A stretch of 64,000 nucleotides of DNA from Candidatus Fraserbacteria bacterium (lineage in GTDB: Bacteria > Bipolaricaulota > Bipolaricaulia > RBG-16-55-9 > DRXL01), in NCBI GenBank assembly GCA_947085185.1, contig CAMTVK010000003.1, forward strand, positions 128,001-192,000, written 5' to 3'. The notes below the pieces were generated by a model that saw nothing but the letters and a program-made list of their open reading frames with translations, did no database searches and was not told where the DNA came from. Of this stretch, positions 49,195 through 59,493 are shown piece by piece (the stretch's first letter is position 1; each line of letters starts with the position of its first letter). Both the position numbers and the translations under genes were made by a program.

Positions 49195-52011
49195 TTAAAA
49201 ATTGCTCCCAAAGTCAAAATAGAGAATCGGGCCAGGCTGCCCCTGCCCTTGGGCCAGCCCAAATCTGAGCTCAATGGGCATCCTATAACCGAGCACAACC
49301 CGCAAGCGCAGCTCGCCCCCATAGCCAAAAAGAGCTTCGTCTGACGGCAGGGGCTTGCCGGAGAGATACGCCCCTTCGGTAAAGAGCAGCCCGTCTATGC
49401 GATCGAAGAAGACTGACCATAGTCCCACGCCCTTGCCAATGTGCAAGATCGGGAAGAGCAGCTCCCAACTCGTATAGGCGATCTGAGAAGCCCTGAAATC
49501 TATGGGGAAGCCGCGCAGGGGCCATGATCCTCCTGGCCCGCCTATGCGAAATGGCCTGAGATCATCGCGCGCGAGCACTGTGAAGCGACTCAACCGATTC
49601 TCAAACCCCAAGGGCAATTGCAAGCTCTCGCGCTGCTCGATCCGAAAGAGCATCTTCCATGAGTTATCGTGCAGGGCAAACTGGACCGAGAGTTTTAAAT
49701 CTCGTCCGACGCGCAAAAGATCGCTCCCGCCCTCGAGTGATTCGCTATAGCGCACCAAGAGCGACGGGACGAGCGTTTCGGCTTGGTGCAGTTGTGCCCC
49801 CAGGGCGAGCGTCTGGGTTCGTCCTATTACGCGCGAGAAGGTCAGCTCTATCTCTGCTCGCGCGACGCTCTCAGATTCGGCGTTATGTTCAAGATGCGCC
49901 AAAAATTTGGGGCTCAGCGCATTGACTGTATCTTCGAGCCAGCCCCACCAGCGTCGCTCGGTCCGCAGGGCAAATGCTCCAGAGTAGTCGAGCGCCAGCA
50001 CCGGCTGCTGCGTCGCAAGATCGAGCCCGGCGTACAGCGTATAGTTCTGATGCCCCAGAGGATCGAACCCCATCGCAAAGAGAGCTGGTTGCAGGGGATT
50101 GGGAACGGGGACCCACAGGCGCGGTGCTAAGAACTCTTTGGCGCGATAGGGCTTTTCTGACAGAGATCCCGTGCGCCAGCCGGGCCATTGTGGGACTGTC
50201 TCGCGAGCGAACTCCACCGGCTTCCAGCTTTGCGGATCGTAGTCCATCAGATGGAGCTCATAGCCCTTGGTGCTGTAACTAATAAAAGCGATCTTGGTCG
50301 CGTCCGGGGAGACCGCTGGGGCAAACGCCCCCGTCAGCACGTTCGTGACTCTCAAGAACTGCCCGTCAGAGAGGCGATACGCGTAGAGATTAAAGACGCC
50401 GTCGCGCTCCGAGCTGAAGAGCACGAAGTTTCCCTCGGGGGACCAGTCGGGATCGAAATCGCCGGCTTTGTCCTGGGTGATGGGCGTCACGTGGGGAGAA
50501 GAGCCGGATGAAAGATCAAGCAGATAGAGATCTTGATAGCCACCCATCCTCCAGAGGGTAAGGGCGATCTTCTGGCCGTCGGGCGAGATCACGAAAGAAT
50601 CTACGAGGGTCCCCGCAGGAAACTCATAAAACGGCACGATTCGCCCGGTGTCAAGCTCATAGATGGAGAGTATGGGGTCTTGTCCGTTGGGGCGCTGCTG
50701 GGCAAAGAGAATTCTTCTGCCATCTGGGAAGAACACGGGATGATAGGCGCGGGCGCGCTCCGTCAGCCGACGCTCTTCTTTCCTCTCTAAGTCCCACAGA
50801 TAGAGATCAGCATAGACATAGTGATTCTCGAAGATCTCGTGTCTGGTGAAGAGCACGGACTTTCCGTCGGGGGAGACGTGAGGAGCTGGCGCAAAGAACG
50901 GCGGTCTGAAGAAGTCGAGCTCGAAGGGCACAGCGAAGAGAGCGTGATCGTCTTTGCCGTCAGGGGTGATGCGTCGGATGGAGGCCTCGCGCACTCGATC
51001 TTTGTGATAGTAATAGATGAATTTCCCATCGGGCGACCAGGTGGGGTCGTTGTTCCAATACTCAAGACGGCTGATCTTTCGAGATGGCGTGATGCCCTCG
51101 CTCTTGATCTGTGCGATTTGGGGTTCAAACTGGGCTCTGAGCCATGCGTGCCAAGCTCTCTCCAGCTCGTGCGCCGAGACGCCAAGGGCTCTCTTAAAAA
51201 TTCTTTCAAAGTCATGGATCGCGCCAAGAGTGACGATGGGCAGCAGCGAGTCGGCGTTGAGCTCATCTATAAGCGCGAGCTTATCGTCGCCGTATTGTTC
51301 GGCGATGAAGCGCACAAACCAGGCGCCCCAGTCGTGCGTGAGCATATATCCCGATGGCCAGTGCGGGGGATCGTAGCCATAGCCGACGCCCATCTGATCG
51401 AGTGAGATAAATTTATTCTCTAGGACTTGGGTGCGGAAGTACATGGCGTCGCGAGCAGAGTTGGAGCGTGAGGCGCCGGAGCGTTTCAGTTCAAAATAGA
51501 TGGGAATCCCTTCAATGAGCGTGCCGGGCTTTGCGCCATTGGTGAGCGTGAGCACCGGGCCGAGCCACGGGCGCAGTCTTTCAGAGAGCCCCGCAGTCTT
51601 TGTGATATCAAAGATGTGCCCGATCTCGTGATATAAGACGTTCTCAAGCCATGAGGGATTTTGGGGATTGAGCCATTCGTTGAACACTCGGGCGTTGGAG
51701 ACGCTGGCGATCACGTCGCCGAAGGGATTGGCCGCCCCAACAGCGAAGTCTGACGGGTCCGCTAAGATAATATTGATCTTCGTGGGCACGCGATATTTGA
51801 GCTCGCGGACCCAGAAGTCATACGCTTCTTCGCTGATGAGCGCAGCTTCTTGAGCAATCGCTTCTAACCCTTGGGGGTAGATCACACGAAAGTGCTCCGT
51901 CTGGAGCACGTACCAATCGAGCGTGGGGTCCAGATCGAGAAACTGTGCGGACGCTGAAAAACCGACCGAGAAAGCCCACAAGAGCGCAAGACCGTGCGCT
52001 ACAAGACGCAT
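49195..52011 (-). CDS. exported protein: HExxH domain, TolB propeller, Omp85/BamA-like barrel tail
   Basis: Signal peptide, QTEHFRV, YHEIGH, PD40 repeats, PLRGF motif, terminal FDFGSNF. Confidence 0.75.
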   Translation of the reverse strand: MRLVAHGLALLWAFSVGFSASAQFLDLDPTLDWYVLQTEHFRVIYPQGLEAIAQEAALISEEAYDFWVRELKYRVPTKINIILADPSDFAVGAANPFGDVIASVSNARVFNEWLNPQNPSWLENVLYHEIGHIFDITKTAGLSERLRPWLGPVLTLTNGAKPGTLIEGIPIYFELKRSGASRSNSARDAMYFRTQVLENKFISLDQMGVGYGYDPPHWPSGYMLTHDWGAWFVRFIAEQYGDDKLALIDELNADSLLPIVTLGAIHDFERIFKRALGVSAHELERAWHAWLRAQFEPQIAQIKSEGITPSRKISRLEYWNNDPTWSPDGKFIYYYHKDRVREASIRRITPDGKDDHALFAVPFELDFFRPPFFAPAPHVSPDGKSVLFTRHEIFENHYVYADLYLWDLERKEERRLTERARAYHPVFFPDGRRILFAQQRPNGQDPILSIYELDTGRIVPFYEFPAGTLVDSFVISPDGQKIALTLWRMGGYQDLYLLDLSSGSSPHVTPITQDKAGDFDPDWSPEGNFVLFSSERDGVFNLYAYRLSDGQFLRVTNVLTGAFAPAVSPDATKIAFISYSTKGYELHLMDYDPQSWKPVEFARETVPQWPGWRTGSLSEKPYRAKEFLAPRLWVPVPNPLQPALFAMGFDPLGHQNYTLYAGLDLATQQPVLALDYSGAFALRTERRWWGWLEDTVNALSPKFLAHLEHNAESESVARAEIELTFSRVIGRTQTLALGAQLHQAETLVPSLLVRYSESLEGGSDLLRVGRDLKLSVQFALHDNSWKMLFRIEQRESLQLPLGFENRLSRFTVLARDDLRPFRIGGPGGSWPLRGFPIDFRASQIAYTSWELLFPILHIGKGVGLWSVFFDRIDGLLFTEGAYLSGKPLPSDEALFGYGGELRLRVVLGYRMPIELRFGLAQGQGQPGPILYFDFGSNF

Positions 52012-52031
52012 CTTTGCTGCCTCCTTGGATA

Positions 52032-52129
52032 TTTGAATCACGGAAGACACGGAAATAAGTCACAGAAGGCACGGAAGTAAAAGCACTTCCGTGGCATCCG
52101 TGATCGTTCCGTGCTTTCCGTGATTCAAA
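52032..52129. repeat. palindromic element copy C (best preserved)
   Basis: Perfect 14-bp terminal IR TTTGAATCACGGAA/TTCCGTGATTCAAA. Confidence 0.85.
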
Positions 52130-53654: not shown

Positions 53655-54950
53655 TTAAAACTTCACGCTCATCGAGGGGCTGATATAGAGCAGATATTCT
53701 CGGCGGAGCTGCACTTCGACACTGGCCAGCCAGGCCCATGTCCCCGGCCCGACCATCCCCCAGCTCATCTCTAATTTTTGGTTGTAGAACCCGTTGAGGA
53801 GCCCGCCCAAGAACGCCGTCTGCGAGCGGAATCGGAACGGCTCAAACTCAGCAAGAATCTCGATGATATGCAGCAGCCCTACTGGGTCTTGGACGACCAG
53901 CTCGTCCTTGAATGAGAGCGCTTCCCACTGTACGGAGAAGCTGAAGCGTTTGGCGGGGAATTGAAAGAGCCCATTGGGATCGATGAACTCGATCTCAAAG
54001 AGCCCGTCCCCAACTTGCGCAGTCCAGCCAAAGCTCACAAACGACGGGGTCGCTAAGTCATGCAACACGATCTTCTGCTGCACGACCGCTCCCAACACAG
54101 AGACGCGCAACGAAAGGACGATCTGCGAGAGCTCGATCGTCGTAAAATCAAAAGCGATCTCGGCACCAAGCGTCACCCCAGCGATCGTCAGATTCCTGAT
54201 GATAAGTTTTTCTTCTTGGAACTCAAGGCCGGGCACCACGCGGCCCTCAAAATATCTCTCTAGGAGTTTGCACTCGCCAAAGCACTCCCAGCCCTGGCGG
54301 GCTCCTATATAAGTTTGAGCGACGATCTCAGCTCCGCCGGGGGTGAGACCCCCAGCTTCGAAGATCAGCCCGCTTTGGAAGTCTGGCTGATTGACTGCTC
54401 CAAAGTTCGCGATGAGCATGGTGAGGGAGAACCTCACGCCTAGAACGTCGAGCGCCATCTGACTGATGAGCTTGCGGAACTGCACAGGGTCGTCTACGGT
54501 GGGGGCGAGCAATTTTGCCATATCCAAGGGCGAAGCGAGCTCGTCTATAAACATTCGCAAGGGGACGCCGACCAGCCCTGGGTCGGGTTGGGCAAACTGC
54601 ACCGTCCAGAAGGGGTCATCGTCCACTTCGAGAATATTGGGGGCGAAGATGAGGACATTGCGGAAGGAGATGACCATGCCCGCTTGGATCTCGAACGCCT
54701 GGAATTCTGCGCCTCTGAAGCTGAAGACACTCGTGCTGGTGATGGCCAGCCCGCTGATGAACAGCGTCAGCCGCAAGCTTGTCTCGGCGTCCACGTTGAT
54801 CTGGTCTATCTTGGTCTGGCCGGGGTTGAGCGGCTCGAAGAAGACCGCCACGGCGATCTCCCCTGATACCGGAGCTGCGGTGCCAAGTTCGAAGTTCCAA
54901 GTTACAAGTTGAAAGAAGACAGTAAGACCAATACACACGAATCTCTTCAT
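53655..54950 (-). CDS. exported beta-strand-rich protein, possible outer-membrane barrel
   Basis: Signal peptide, alternating hydrophobic pattern, C-terminal Phe (MSVKF). Confidence 0.55.
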   Translation of the reverse strand: MKRFVCIGLTVFFQLVTWNFELGTAAPVSGEIAVAVFFEPLNPGQTKIDQINVDAETSLRLTLFISGLAITSTSVFSFRGAEFQAFEIQAGMVISFRNVLIFAPNILEVDDDPFWTVQFAQPDPGLVGVPLRMFIDELASPLDMAKLLAPTVDDPVQFRKLISQMALDVLGVRFSLTMLIANFGAVNQPDFQSGLIFEAGGLTPGGAEIVAQTYIGARQGWECFGECKLLERYFEGRVVPGLEFQEEKLIIRNLTIAGVTLGAEIAFDFTTIELSQIVLSLRVSVLGAVVQQKIVLHDLATPSFVSFGWTAQVGDGLFEIEFIDPNGLFQFPAKRFSFSVQWEALSFKDELVVQDPVGLLHIIEILAEFEPFRFRSQTAFLGGLLNGFYNQKLEMSWGMVGPGTWAWLASVEVQLRREYLLYISPSMSVKF

Positions 54951-55459
54951 GGCGCGATGATCACCACCTGGCCGGCACTGGGGGGACCTATGGGGATAGG
55001 ATTCCCAACCCTATCGGTGAAGAGATCGACGGCTGTGATTGTCAGAGCTGTCGACGCTCCTACAGGGCCGACGGCTTGCACGGCCATCTCGATGATGGGA
55101 ATTTCGAGCGCCCCCAGCCCTGCCGCAATGATGGGCCGGATGCTCCCCCCAGGAAAACTCGCAACAAATTGTACCCAGCCCATAGTGTTATTGATCGTGC
55201 TCCCAAAGACGGTGAACCCATTCACTCCCGTCAGCCCTGTCACTTGAATGACCGAAGGATCGAACGTCAGCAGCCCGGTTGGGCCGACTTGAATGGTCTT
55301 GGCGTCCGGGGGATTTACAATGCTGATGCGGACGACGCCTGTGCCGCCGGCGGGCAGGTTCAGCGTGCCTACCGTCACGCGTGTGCGATAGGATCCCTCA
55401 CAGCCTGTTAAGATTCCGAGCATGATGCCAAGACAGAGAACCCACCGAGAGAGCTTCAT
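54947..55459 (-). CDS. cohesin-like domain lipoprotein
   Basis: Lipobox LTGC; LTFDPSVIQV, GWVQF, AVGPVGASTALTIT...D..GNPI. Confidence 0.6.
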   Translation of the reverse strand: MKLSRWVLCLGIMLGILTGCEGSYRTRVTVGTLNLPAGGTGVVRISIVNPPDAKTIQVGPTGLLTFDPSVIQVTGLTGVNGFTVFGSTINNTMGWVQFVASFPGGSIRPIIAAGLGALEIPIIEMAVQAVGPVGASTALTITAVDLFTDRVGNPIPIGPPSAGQVVIIAP

Positions 55460-58400
55460 CGGAGGATCACCAGTTTTTGGAGGCGGCTGCGCATGAGCGA
55501 GCCGTCTGCTCCTCGTACCAAGACGACATAGAGATAGACGCCGTTGGCCAGAGGACGTCCATCGTCAGTGAGGGCGAGCCAGTCCAGCTCTGCTCCCTTG
55601 CGCCACCCGCTGATGAAGAGAGCTTTTCCAGCAAGATTGAAGACTTGGACGTTCATCTCGACGATGCCCGACCCATAAGCGCGAAAGCGCATCAGTTGGC
55701 CTTGCGCGTGATATTCGGTGCGCTCGAGGGTCACGGCAGCAGCAGCTTGCAAGAGCGCTTGAGGCGTTCGCGCGTCGAGCGCAGGGCAGTACCCACGATA
55801 TCCGCGCGCGATCTCGCTGATCACCGTGACATCGCGCACATCGAGACCCCCAAATGGCGGCGCGACGTCGGCCGCAAGGCGTTGCGATTCGGTCAATCGA
55901 ATGCTCCCTAAGATCGCACGGGCGACAAGCTGCGCGTCGGCTTCTTCAACCAGGCCGTTGTTGTCCACATCTCCGCAGAGCAAGAACGAGCTCCCCAAGA
56001 CAGTTACCGTTGCATCGTGGGGTGTTGGCGTGCGCGGATCATCGCTGTACTGGGCAGAGATATTCGCCCCGGAGATCTGGGCTTGATTGGAGATCGTGAG
56101 CGCATCTTGGGGAACGGGGTTAATGATCCGGACGCGGAAGCTCACCCGCGTTTGTCCTCCGAAGGCCCCAACAGCTCCGAGATTAGCGCTCAGGGCGGAG
56201 TCCGTCGAACCTGGTGCTCCCCCGCTTGAGCTCGTCTTGAGCGTTTCCATAATAAGACGTGTCTTGGGGTCAGGCGTATCCGAGAGCACAATATCTGTCG
56301 CATCTCTCGTGCCGGCGTTGATGAGCACGAGGACATATTCGAGTATGTCTCCGGGGGTGATGGTGCCACTGTGGTCGGTGTCGTAGGCGAGAAAGACGTC
56401 CTTGGTAAAGTGCATCAGCGGCGCGGCAGCAATCACTGTCTTTGTTGGATCTTCTTGGGCAGGAGTATCAGGGTCGTCGCTCACTAAGCTTCCGACACCG
56501 GGGATATTGACGAGCGCTTGGGTGGAGATGCTCGCGATGCTTGAGGGCAGAGAGTCTTTTATAGTCACATCAAACGAGACGGAAGCCGTGCCCCCAGCGC
56601 GCGCGATTCTGTCTATGAGAACCCCGACAGAGCTGTCCCCGACAGTGTTGCCCGACTGAACAATGCCCAGAGAAGTCCGCACGCTGCCCACAACAAGCTG
56701 GGTATTGAGATCGGGAGTATCGCTGAGGAAGACGTTGGTCGCGTCGGCGTTACCGATATTGATGAGCAAGATATGATAACTCAGGGTGTCGCCGGGGCTG
56801 GGGAGACCGTCGCCGTTGGCGTCGTTCTTCAAAAAAGCTCTCATTGTCATTAAGACGTAGGGTTGGTCCATGGCGATGGTGCGGGTCGGGTCATCGACGG
56901 CGGGGGTAGTAGGATCATCGCTTACGAAGCTTGGGGTGTTTTCGCTGCTGACGAGGGCGTGATTGGAGATCGACACGACGCCGCCGGGGAGTGGGGCATT
57001 GACGCCGACGCGGAACGTGATCGTCGCGCTCTTGCTATTGGCCATCAGTGTGCCGAGATTGACTTGAACGGATCGGTCGTTCTCGGCATTGCCCTTCGTC
57101 ACGGCCCCTTGGGTGGTCGTGACGCTGCCGATCACGAGCGTCACGTTCGGGTCGAGGCCATCGGAGAGCACGACCGATCCGACATTCTCGCGACCCACGT
57201 TCTGTACGGTGATCGTATATTTGATAATATCTCCGGGGCTGGGCTGGCCGTCCCCGTCAAGATCGTTAAAAATCGAGAAAGTCTTGGACACCCGCAGGAG
57301 CGGCCCAGTGCTGACGATGATCTCCGTGGGATCGAGAGGAGCGAGCGTCGTCGGGTCATCGGTGGGCTCGTCGGGGAGCTCATTACTCGAGATGATCCCC
57401 TGGGCGCGAACGAGGGGCGTCCCTGGGGGCAGTGGGCTTTTGATGCGCACCCGCAACTGAATCGTCTCTGATGCGCTAGGGCTCAAAGTCCCAAGGTCCA
57501 CACGAACTTGGGAGCTTGAGACTGTCGTCCCGCTTGTTGCCGTGACGCTGTCTGGGAGAAGGGCCGTCTTGGGATCGGGAGTAAAGCGGAAGACGACGCC
57601 GGTGGCCGGAGCCGGACCGATGTTGGTGACCGTGACGCGGTACTCGATAGTATCGCCGGGGCTTCCTCCCAGCGGGGGAGTATCTTCAACGAGAGAGGCT
57701 GTAAGTATTGCTCGCAGGTGCGGGCTGTGCGTCGCTGATCCTACGGTGGTCGTCAAGGATGCTGAATTATTGGCTGTATTGGTCTCAGCAGAGTTGGTCA
57801 TCGCTTGGGCGATGGTCTTCAATTCTGTGCCCGTAGGGACGGAGCTTTGTACGGATATTTGGACGCTGAGCGAGCCGCCCTGCCCACTGTGAAGCGAACC
57901 GATCGAGAATGTCAAGGTCTGTCCAGAATTGTTTGTGGGCGGTGGGCTGGCGCTGACAAACTGCGTGCCGTTGGGAAGGGTGAGGGTAATCTGGAGGTCT
58001 TCGGCGACGGACGGTCCGGCGTTGTGATAGTGCACCATGAGATTGAGCGAGCTGCCGGGAAGGACGGTCGTAGGGCCGGAGATGCCCAGCTGCACATCCG
58101 TGGAGCTGTTGGCACACGCCGTGTCCGAAGCAACGATCGAGCTCGAATTGATGGTCCCTTGGGCAGTGTTGCACATGATATCAGCCGAGGTGGCCGTGGC
58201 TTGGAAGCCCACGGTGCCCGCGGGGTTCTGCCCAGAGGGGACGGGATCGAGGATGACCCAGCGGAGCGCAGTGACGCGGGCAGCAGAAGCTGGCTCTGTC
58301 GTCACAAACGTTGCGCCGCCATCTGTAGACCAGAGCTTGAGACACGTATGGCTGCACGTCGAGCTTCCGGCCACATATGTGACTTCAGAAGGCAGAATAT

Positions 58401-59493
58401 CTGTGATCGTGACGCCGTTGCCTGAGGTGGGATCGCCGATGGCTGCTCCGCCCGAGTTGCCGTAGGCGATAGAGTACGTAAGAGTTGTCCCCGGTGTTGC
58501 GGACGTTGGGGTGACGGATTTATCAATGAGCAGCCTGCCGAGGGTGTCGCGGACTTGAATAGTGAGCGTGATCGCGCCGATATCGGCGTTAAATTTGTGT
58601 CCGCTGCCTGAGGCGGCTTGCTGATAGGGCACAAGAGTTGTTGAGCACGCGCGCACCCCTATGAACGTGTACTTGACGTAATCGGGAGGGGTGCGGGTGT
58701 AGTTTGGCGGCGGGTTGTGTGAGCCGATGCCAGAAAAATAGAGCTGATCGCTATAGGGCGTCGCTCGGATGCTGGTGAGCATGACTTCGGTGCGCACGAG
58801 TCTCAAGCACGTCGGATCGAAGCTGGGATTGCTGACGGGCTGAAGCCAAGCGTCTTCGATGGCTTCTGGGCCAGGCCCCACGGCTCCTAAATCGAATCCC
58901 GTGATCGTGACCGTGACGAGCTGCCCAACGCCGATCTGGTTTGAGCTTGGCTCGACGGTGACCGAGCCGTCGGTGGGCAGGATTCTGCTGGAGCTTGCCG
59001 CGGAGGAGTTTTTCGTGTGCAAGGTCGCGCTCTGAGAGGCGCCGCAATTGTTCTCTGATGTTGCCCACACTGAGTACGGGTACGAGATATCGGACGTGTT
59101 GGGATAGAGCACGTGCCAATAGACCGTGCGCGTTGCTCCTGGAGGAAGGTTTCCCAAAGGGCGCGTGGCTTCGCGTGGGGAGCCGAGCATCTGGAGGCTC
59201 TCTGCGCCGACGGATTCGAATGTGCCAGGGGTTGTGCCGTCGCCGATGAAGAGCGTCACGTTCTTGATGGGATTTGATCCGGTGTTTTGTATTCTCACGG
59301 AGAGCGTCGCTACTTTCGGTCCCTCTGAAGAGACTACAGCAAATGGGCTGGACGTGATCGTGAGAGCAAGCGGGCAGCTTAACGCAGCTGAGCGGGACGA
59401 CAAGGTGAAGAGCATTGGGGAAGCAGCAACCATGGCGAGGAGCAATAGCCGGGAACTTCGAGCTTGACACGTGGAACTTGTCACTCTCTTCAT
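55456..59493 (-). CDS. large surface protein: DUF11 Ig-like repeats, dockerin-like module, T9SS/FlgD-like tail
   Basis: PGD-x-(I/L)-x-Y and SDDP-x-TP repeats; CGDVDNNG..DA...AADV..DV; VFNLAG...LANGVYLY...KLVILR. Confidence 0.78.
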   Translation of the reverse strand: MKRVTSSTCQARSSRLLLLAMVAASPMLFTLSSRSAALSCPLALTITSSPFAVVSSEGPKVATLSVRIQNTGSNPIKNVTLFIGDGTTPGTFESVGAESLQMLGSPREATRPLGNLPPGATRTVYWHVLYPNTSDISYPYSVWATSENNCGASQSATLHTKNSSAASSSRILPTDGSVTVEPSSNQIGVGQLVTVTITGFDLGAVGPGPEAIEDAWLQPVSNPSFDPTCLRLVRTEVMLTSIRATPYSDQLYFSGIGSHNPPPNYTRTPPDYVKYTFIGVRACSTTLVPYQQAASGSGHKFNADIGAITLTIQVRDTLGRLLIDKSVTPTSATPGTTLTYSIAYGNSGGAAIGDPTSGNGVTITDILPSEVTYVAGSSTCSHTCLKLWSTDGGATFVTTEPASAARVTALRWVILDPVPSGQNPAGTVGFQATATSADIMCNTAQGTINSSSIVASDTACANSSTDVQLGISGPTTVLPGSSLNLMVHYHNAGPSVAEDLQITLTLPNGTQFVSASPPPTNNSGQTLTFSIGSLHSGQGGSLSVQISVQSSVPTGTELKTIAQAMTNSAETNTANNSASLTTTVGSATHSPHLRAILTASLVEDTPPLGGSPGDTIEYRVTVTNIGPAPATGVVFRFTPDPKTALLPDSVTATSGTTVSSSQVRVDLGTLSPSASETIQLRVRIKSPLPPGTPLVRAQGIISSNELPDEPTDDPTTLAPLDPTEIIVSTGPLLRVSKTFSIFNDLDGDGQPSPGDIIKYTITVQNVGRENVGSVVLSDGLDPNVTLVIGSVTTTQGAVTKGNAENDRSVQVNLGTLMANSKSATITFRVGVNAPLPGGVVSISNHALVSSENTPSFVSDDPTTPAVDDPTRTIAMDQPYVLMTMRAFLKNDANGDGLPSPGDTLSYHILLINIGNADATNVFLSDTPDLNTQLVVGSVRTSLGIVQSGNTVGDSSVGVLIDRIARAGGTASVSFDVTIKDSLPSSIASISTQALVNIPGVGSLVSDDPDTPAQEDPTKTVIAAAPLMHFTKDVFLAYDTDHSGTITPGDILEYVLVLINAGTRDATDIVLSDTPDPKTRLIMETLKTSSSGGAPGSTDSALSANLGAVGAFGGQTRVSFRVRIINPVPQDALTISNQAQISGANISAQYSDDPRTPTPHDATVTVLGSSFLLCGDVDNNGLVEEADAQLVARAILGSIRLTESQRLAADVAPPFGGLDVRDVTVISEIARGYRGYCPALDARTPQALLQAAAAVTLERTEYHAQGQLMRFRAYGSGIVEMNVQVFNLAGKALFISGWRKGAELDWLALTDDGRPLANGVYLYVVLVRGADGSLMRSRLQKLVILR

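Follow-up and report, generated by a model that had tools for sequence, protein, structure and literature searches.

The operon described here, three genes on the minus strand between positions 53,655 and 59,493 of the window (the whole stretch of 64,000 nucleotides that was analysed, G000:C3:128001-192000) in the genome of a Candidatus Fraserbacteria bacterium (G000; rarely cultured phylum Bipolaricaulota; 1.72 Mb, 96.8% complete), probably encodes a three-part surface anchor. A cohesin lipoprotein mounted on an outer-membrane barrel would dock an exported cargo protein by its dockerin, and the stalk of the cargo would present its head. What is conserved across much of the phylum is the pairing of the lipoprotein with the dockerin, to which the barrel is often added; the DUF11 stalk is one among several cargo types. 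The genes and their relevant parts, starting from the open reading frames (ORFs), are located in the window as follows.

55456..59493, minus strand: gene 1, cargo protein of 1345 amino acids (aa), ORF
58540..59379, minus strand: head of gene 1, residues 39-318, candidate binding tip
55990..58539, minus strand: stalk of gene 1, six DUF11 immunoglobulin (Ig)-like stretches, Pfam/TIGR matches
55789..55980, minus strand: type I-like dockerin of gene 1, residues 1172-1235, PF00404 and ortholog profile
55459..55707, minus strand: type IX/FlgD-like C-terminal domain of gene 1, residues 1263-1345 (the last 83), profile likeness
54947..55459, minus strand: gene 2, cohesin lipoprotein of 170 aa, ORF
55103..55150, minus strand: extra cohesin loop of gene 2, mature residues 85-100, predicted barrel contact
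53655..54950, minus strand: gene 3, predicted outer-membrane barrel of 431 aa, ORF
54510..54614, minus strand: long barrel loop 3 of gene 3, residues 113-147, main predicted cohesin contact

An earlier reading of the DNA letters, hereafter the original prediction, had proposed three genes linked by ATGA overlaps. The ORFs were found as described, with an ATGA stop/start overlap at the gene 1/gene 2 as well as at the gene 2/gene 3 junction. Scans for promoters (4 vs 2.6) and terminators (10 vs 6.3) gave results near chance. The source labels of close homologs read Bipolaricaulota, Acetothermia or Acetithermum. Since dockerins (five proteins) and cohesins (six proteins) are few in the genome and the gene order recurs across families, a chance pairing is excluded. 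The gene xseA and other neighbours were rejected as operon members, since their position downstream of it is limited to most loci of family f1.

Gene 2 is predicted to encode a lipoprotein with the lipobox LTGC and the cysteine Cys20 at 55400-55402 (minus strand). This cysteine was shared by all 35 aligned relatives, which had been cut at that residue, and the cohesin fold starts about five residues past it. Sequence searches of Pfam and PDB, run with gene 2 as well as with its alignment, yielded no match naming it, and PF00963 matched neither gene 2 nor 11 of its relatives. The cut-off of PF00963 was exceeded by two paralogs of gene 2 in this genome (34 and 41 bits), and in the Atlas a cohesin cluster came up for gene 2 at 0.94. 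According to its structure model (predicted local distance difference test, pLDDT, of 91) gene 2 has the beta-sandwich fold of cohesins. The top Foldseek match was 2XDH, the non-cellulosomal cohesin of Archaeoglobus (E 4e-8), and VIA-align gave a Z score of 16.6 with a root-mean-square deviation (rmsd) of 2.1 Å over 132 residues; its top 20 matches were all cohesins, the next family following at Z 8.9. The proposal that the lipoprotein is essentially one cohesin-like domain is thus borne out by the model. A likeness of gene 2 to DnaK was rejected owing to weak matches (E>0.1).

Gene 1 appears to be composed of a predicted signal peptide, a head, the DUF11 stalk, a dockerin and a type IX-like tail, in this order. 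The predicted DUF11 repeats were recovered as six stretches (PF01345, E 7e-43; TIGR01451, E 1e-43), three of which contain a DxDxDG-type motif. The head as a whole had no family match in the Pfam scan; it is 38-48% identical to portions of unrelated large proteins, two of them named Chloroflexota. No glycoside hydrolase family occurred among the 19 Pfam matches of gene 1 at E<=1, in agreement with the original prediction, and the scan revealed no known sugar-binding or enzyme family either. The non-catalytic Ig-like domains may point to an adhesin role of gene 1.

The module that had been read as a duplicated calcium-loop/helix is a type I-like dockerin: its PF00404 score is 18.7 bits within the whole protein and 25.6 bits alone (cut-off 22.9), and a 24-row profile of cognate dockerins matches solved type I dockerins (E 4e-15 to 1e-12). 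As a correction to that reading, only the first calcium loop is canonical. The dockerin is flanked by cysteines 1173 and 1236 and belongs to the best-conserved parts of gene 1, with 79-89% identity across 6 congeners. The C-terminal domain is likely type IX/FlgD-like by profile only. A search of gene 1 with TIGR04183 gave no match. Its tail family has 14 members in this genome including that of gene 1. Three paralogous tails exceed the TIGR04183 cut-off, and the family profile matches the PorZ tail (5M11, E 3e-5) and the secreted tail 8GLJ chain D (E 0.004). In the genome G009 gene 1 is divided into two frames (L048:4944-8154) by an assembly error or decay. Elsewhere the tail domain is N-terminal in two proteins or forms a stand-alone ORF of 90 aa (L006:6614-7795, L007:6044-7405, L008:6653-6925).

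Gene 3 had been described as an exported beta-rich protein ending in Phe; the terminal residue is indeed phenylalanine, and the protein is predicted to form a plugless 22-stranded outer-membrane barrel. Its sequence revealed nothing useful in comparison with Pfam, TIGR and PDB. The model derived from a 101-row alignment reached a pLDDT of 95, and 22 barrel strands were counted from its secondary structure. Because the first strand begins at mature residue 4, gene 3 would be without a plug domain. The top matches in the structure comparison were 22-stranded TonB-type barrels (Z 17.2, rmsd 3.5 Å, 325 aligned residues, 7% identity), and the solved TonB-type chains align with gene 3 only from after their plug. 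A TonB-dependent transporter was rejected due to the missing plug domain in the model; pilus ushers, the top Foldseek matches of gene 3, were rejected as a generic barrel likeness (rmsd 13-21 Å).

The barrel family comprises 227 representatives at E<=0.001 and is restricted to Bipolaricaulota according to the Atlas labels alone; looking up the clusters of 10 distant barrels yielded no taxon names. In a fast tree of 132 rows, from which 7 near-duplicate congeners had been excluded, the lipoprotein-linked barrels form the two groups f1/f4/f7 (support 86) and f8/f9 (support 100). Three paralogs of gene 3 are encoded in tandem directly after an SLH-coiled-coil gene on C3 (G000:C3:63242-68698; L004:7243-12699), a neighbour that gene 3 itself does not have; together with the SLH-coiled-coil gene they are candidates for the main sheath proteins. 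A further clade of barrel paralogs occurs in relatives and was not found in this genome (L058:9932-11245, L059:3344-4735, L060:1112-2500), and in the genome G006 the barrel gene is interrupted (L054:6278-7178) by an assembly error or decay.

Co-folding of the barrel and the lipoprotein yielded a score of 0.61 (runs 0.64, 0.09 and 0.61), compared to 0.01 for the best of three controls. With this score the pair passed a mark that 116 of 157 solved complexes had attained, as had 2 of 215 mismatched pairs; for our own alignments these numbers are rough. The runs share at least 74% of their contacts, with a partner pLDDT of at least 80, and the modelled complex supports a binding of the lipoprotein to the barrel. 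Mapped on the strand list, the contacts of the barrel lie in its loop 3 and at the outer ends of its strands 13-22; those of the cohesin are residues 4-8 and, at one end of the protein, the loops 29-33, 60-62 and 85-100. In the standard topology of such barrels both termini are periplasmic and the long loops lie on the outer face. Assuming periplasmic termini for gene 3, the cohesin is predicted to sit on the outer-loop face of the barrel, with the cohesin loop and barrel loop 3 at the barrel mouth. The strands which we take, from type I complexes, to be the dockerin-binding sheet are not among the named barrel contacts, the unnamed residues being uncertain. No solved cohesin-barrel complex was present among the structure matches; the geometry of a lid on a barrel is common among solved structures.

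The loop 85-100 of the lipoprotein holds an insert of 9-12 residues in 18 of 18 lipoproteins paired with the barrel clade of gene 3 and in 0 of 51 others, and the genome G023 encodes one lipoprotein with and one without it. Within family f8, a C-terminal Tyr-Tyr tail was detected in 14 of the 15 lipoproteins linked to a barrel and in none of the 5 that are unlinked; in family f9 it was present in 6 of 7 barrel-linked ones.

A lipoprotein capping the outer face of a barrel would also be expected in an uptake unit similar to SusC-SusD or BtuB-BtuG, complexes of which are among the TonB-dependent top matches of gene 3; the barrel would then be the pore, the lipoprotein its lid, and the docked protein would capture and bring the substrate. 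Taking into account that the plug is lacking in a barrel that begins at mature residue 4, that gene 1 has no enzyme or known sugar-binding family, that unrelated non-catalytic proteins replace one another as cargo and that no transport or catabolic gene was a constant neighbour of the loci, such a function seems quite unlikely.

The recurrence of the genes across the phylum favours the three-part anchor. The profile of the cohesin lipoprotein matched in 74 of 184 genomes, cohesins inside larger proteins included. Reading 75 stretches by script resulted in 61 stand-alone lipoproteins and 7 fusions among the matches listed; two candidates were discarded for want of a lipobox, and the length filter removed at least one further locus (L144). 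Among loci with sufficient sequence, the dockerin gene was located immediately upstream of the lipoprotein in 45 of 56 and the barrel immediately downstream in 39 of 59, and all three were found together in 30 of 54, which bears out the expected co-occurrence. These counts include kin and are not independent. Without the 17 loci that were first selected via the barrel the dockerin gene was upstream in 29/40 and the barrel downstream in 22/42. The full triple occurs in the families f1, f4, f7, f8 and f9; an adjacent barrel was found in none of four loci of f3 and none of two of f5, and an adjacent dockerin gene in none of four of f5. The upstream cargos are of the DUF11, LTD, PKD, beta-helix and InlB B-repeat types, the dockerin being the sole constant part of the upstream gene and the remainder being swapped.

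Dockerin and lipoprotein are furthermore fused in eight cases, seven in relatives and one in this genome, in the order dockerin, hydrophobic segment, basic cluster, second hydrophobic segment, lipobox and cohesin. None of the 7 counted fusions has an adjacent barrel. The fusion of this genome is a single ORF (G000:C1:74689-76857; L003:6690-8858) with two lamin-tail domains, a dockerin, an internal lipobox and a cohesin; it may represent a polyprotein, possibly cleaved by signal peptidase II, and similar fusions occur in f1, f2 and f3. Other cargos end in dockerin, cohesin and tail (L055:2331-8594, L057:5036-13059, L061:6152-8608, L070:10787-13615) and could chain onto each other from the lipoprotein anchor. 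A cluster at G000:C7:108231-128892 (L001:8232-16222, L002:3748-12893) encodes exported proteins with cohesin, dockerin, PKD, FG-GAP and RTX repeats, its PorV-like genes alternating with tail-bearing genes.

With regard to the export route, the type IX-like tail family was detected in 178/184 genomes, and the tail is present on only 18/45 cargos. The genome has five PorV-like matches (E 9e-16 to 4e-6), all under the 90-bit cut-off; four of these genes adjoin tail-bearing genes, and none adjoins the operon. Behind one of them lies the gene of a weakly SprA-like protein of 1374 aa, homologs of which are present in 175/184 genomes. It is part of a row formed by an S8 protease with a type IX-like tail, a PorV-like barrel and the 1374-aa protein (G000:C19:68276-75485; L010:6277-13486). 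A search of this genome for SprA gave no match, but no control was detected by that search either. Of the GldKLMN motor the search covered GldM (PF12080) alone; neither it nor PorU (C25 peptidase) was found, again with no control detected. LpxC was not found in the genome, while 4 controls were detected. BamA is encoded.

Several observations weigh against the three-part anchor. The second calcium loop of the dockerin is degenerate and retains only some acidic positions, and one of the three co-fold runs reached only 0.09. The adjacent barrel is absent for 20/59 lipoproteins and the adjacent dockerin gene for 11/56, and the groups f1/f4/f7 and f8/f9 are not sisters in the fast tree. The 18 insert-bearing lipoproteins form one clade and hence represent one event, and in f9 the Tyr-Tyr tail also occurs in 3 of 6 unlinked lipoproteins. 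A type IX-like route cannot explain 27/45 cargos, because those lack the tail. The 1374-aa protein of this genome has no TIGR04189, PF14349 or PDB SprA match; TIGR04189 was matched by 16 of 17 of its orthologs, below the cut-off (best E 6e-9). A canonical LolA was not found in the genome, only two LolA-like matches. Finally, the two hydrophobic segments before the lipobox would keep the cargo of the fusions in the inner membrane unless they are cleaved.

The two-helix linker of the fusions, suited to the inner membrane, the missing canonical LolA and the lipoproteins without an adjacent barrel would agree with an envelope spacer, i.e. a lipoprotein that faces the periplasm and tethers the stalk within a sheath-like outer layer. 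According to published work, Bipolaricaulota possess a Thermotoga-like (toga-like) outer sheath (PMC6092417; bioRxiv 10.1101/2025.11.21.689855), and one of the two reports lipopolysaccharide (LPS) genes to be absent. However, the named barrel contacts are all located in long loops and adjoining strand ends, which the standard topology places on the outer face, and the tail of the cargo is related to outer-membrane export signals. Thus, we regard the spacer as improbable.

For the cargos without a tail, which need another route, the 22-stranded barrel, plugless in the model and resembling pilus ushers in the Foldseek search, might serve as a dedicated exporter, so that the cargo or the lipoprotein passes its lumen and the cohesin catches the emerging dockerin. 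The usher likeness is a generic one, and tail-less cargos are found as well at loci that have no barrel next to them (L064, L072, L121, L132). Moreover, the cohesin loop and barrel loop 3 occupy the mouth in the co-fold, and close paralogs of the barrel follow the SLH-coiled-coil gene, as structural envelope barrels do. Of the roles originally proposed for the third protein (barrel, exporter or scaffold), the barrel is supported by the 22-stranded model and the predicted binding of the lipoprotein, and that of an exporter seems unlikely.

The degenerate calcium loop could furthermore indicate that the dockerin docks elsewhere, on one of the five other cohesins, or acts as a calcium-stabilised spacer, with the cargo retained through its tail by a PorV-like barrel. 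Cohesin and dockerin do co-occur inside tail-bearing proteins, and PorV-like genes adjoin other tail-bearing genes. A scenario of this kind for gene 1 is highly improbable in view of the constancy of the dockerin in the upstream gene and its eight fusions to the lipoprotein, its high identity among the congeners and the lack of a PorV-like gene beside the operon.

A cellulosome was ruled out: each of the six cohesin proteins holds one cohesin, no multi-cohesin scaffoldin being present, and 0 of 5 dockerin proteins carry a hydrolase family. Non-cellulosomal pairs, as 2XDH and those of ANME (PMC9012536), resemble the operon in having no cellulases, and the operon has no multi-cohesin scaffoldin. 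The A. fulgidus cohesin 2XDH is likewise a single cohesin of the same fold (Z 16.1), with only 17-18% sequence identity. In contrast to these pairs, the cohesin is here a lipoprotein of a diderm with a dedicated barrel partner and a cargo with a type IX-like tail.

The folds of the anchoring cohesins OlpA (3UL4), OlpC (4DH2) and ScaE (2ZF9) of cellulosome producers are similar as well (Z 11-16), and in both cases one anchored cohesin would capture a dockerin-tagged protein at the surface. OlpA, OlpC and ScaE, each presumably anchored by SLH domains or sortase, serve enzymes, whereas here lipid and the predicted barrel would be the anchor. In general, surface cohesins of cellulosome producers are anchored by SLH domains or sortase in monoderms, as stated in PMC9012536.

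With SusC-SusD, BtuB-BtuG and TbpA-TbpB the operon shares adjacent genes, a 22-stranded barrel and a lipoprotein predicted on its outer face; it differs by the lack of a plug, by its length (about 410 residues, the matched chains having 550-870), by an identity of 5-10% and by a cohesin as lipoprotein. Most likely, the arrangement combines the function of an anchoring cohesin, as in cellulosome producers, with a mount resembling that of a SusD-type lid. Three further systems are similar in part. The three paralogs directly behind the SLH-coiled-coil gene resemble Thermotoga Omp-alpha/Omp-beta (PMC10160955), a likeness of gene layout and not of compared sequences; gene 3 itself falls into a clade of its own, which is linked to lipoproteins. 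The cellulosome-like system of Ca. Stygibacter (Cloacimonadota), also from an uncultured lineage, combines cohesin, dockerin and a C-terminal surface-attachment domain. It differs by a multi-cohesin scaffold of 3,755 aa and dockerin enzymes, and no lipoprotein-barrel anchor was found in the accessible text (PMC8542988). The matches of the tail profile to 5M11 and 8GLJ chain D, the PorV-like genes and the weak SprA-like gene recall the type IX system of Bacteroidota (PorV/PorQ/PorP barrels, PorU sortase, anionic LPS), in which PorU attaches the cargo to anionic LPS or PorV-like barrels retain it (PMC10202324). Here, LpxC was not found, the barrel of the operon is not PorV-like, and anchoring would occur via cohesin and dockerin.

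In the three-part anchor, Sec would take the cargo and the barrel out of the cytoplasm, and BamA would fold the barrel. The cargo might then cross the outer membrane via a reduced type IX-like route, consisting of the SprA-like pore and PorV-like barrels and reading its tail. The plugless barrel is predicted to hold the lipid-tailed cohesin on the outer face, where the cohesin would bind the dockerin near the C-terminus of gene 1 in a calcium-dependent manner; both cohesin and cargo would presumably be surface-exposed. This non-covalent anchor would do the job of PorU and anionic LPS in Bacteroidota, the cohesin socket being an alternative where LPS is absent, and the stalk would keep the head at a distance from the cell, serving adhesion or capture. 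A wider proposal, which we put forward tentatively and consider rather doubtful as a whole, is an undescribed LPS-independent outer-membrane display platform of Bipolaricaulota with a barrel-mounted cohesin lipoprotein as universal socket for dockerin-tagged cargo, a three-part type IX-like exporter that lacks a motor and delivers this cargo outside Bacteroidota, cargos with dockerin and cohesin that chain into fibres, and a socket-barrel lock that was solved twice, in one clade by the loop insert and in another by the Tyr-Tyr tail.

The window also encodes an exported protein of 951 aa with a TolB-like propeller and a barrel-looking C-terminal region ending in Phe (49195-52050, minus strand); a similar protein is encoded at G000:C6:3754-6507.

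Non-cellulosomal pairs of cohesin and dockerin are already established (PMC9012536, PMC12484212). A description of the cassette was not found in the full-text literature; subscription papers and supplements, which were outside this scope, may list the genes. Direct literature searches combining the phylum name with cohesin or dockerin returned only PMC8542988 and PMC6624737, neither of which is on the cassette in its accessible part. A genome study of one member of Bipolaricaulota reported no adhesin genes (PMC6092417).

Cohesin-dockerin pairs outside cellulosomes are known and their jobs mostly are not; the locus would provide such a pair with a concrete and testable role. Its parts are small and expressible, and a preprint reports a cultured member of the phylum. 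The similar tails in 178/184 genomes bear on the assertion in PMC10202324 that type IX tails occur in Bacteroidota only. The lipoprotein seated on its own barrel would be a new type of anchor, and a natural cohesin anchor in the outer membrane would be of interest for the engineering of surface display. Furthermore, the locus offers a clue to the way in which large proteins may be held on the surface of a deep-branching diderm with no lipid A synthesis detected.

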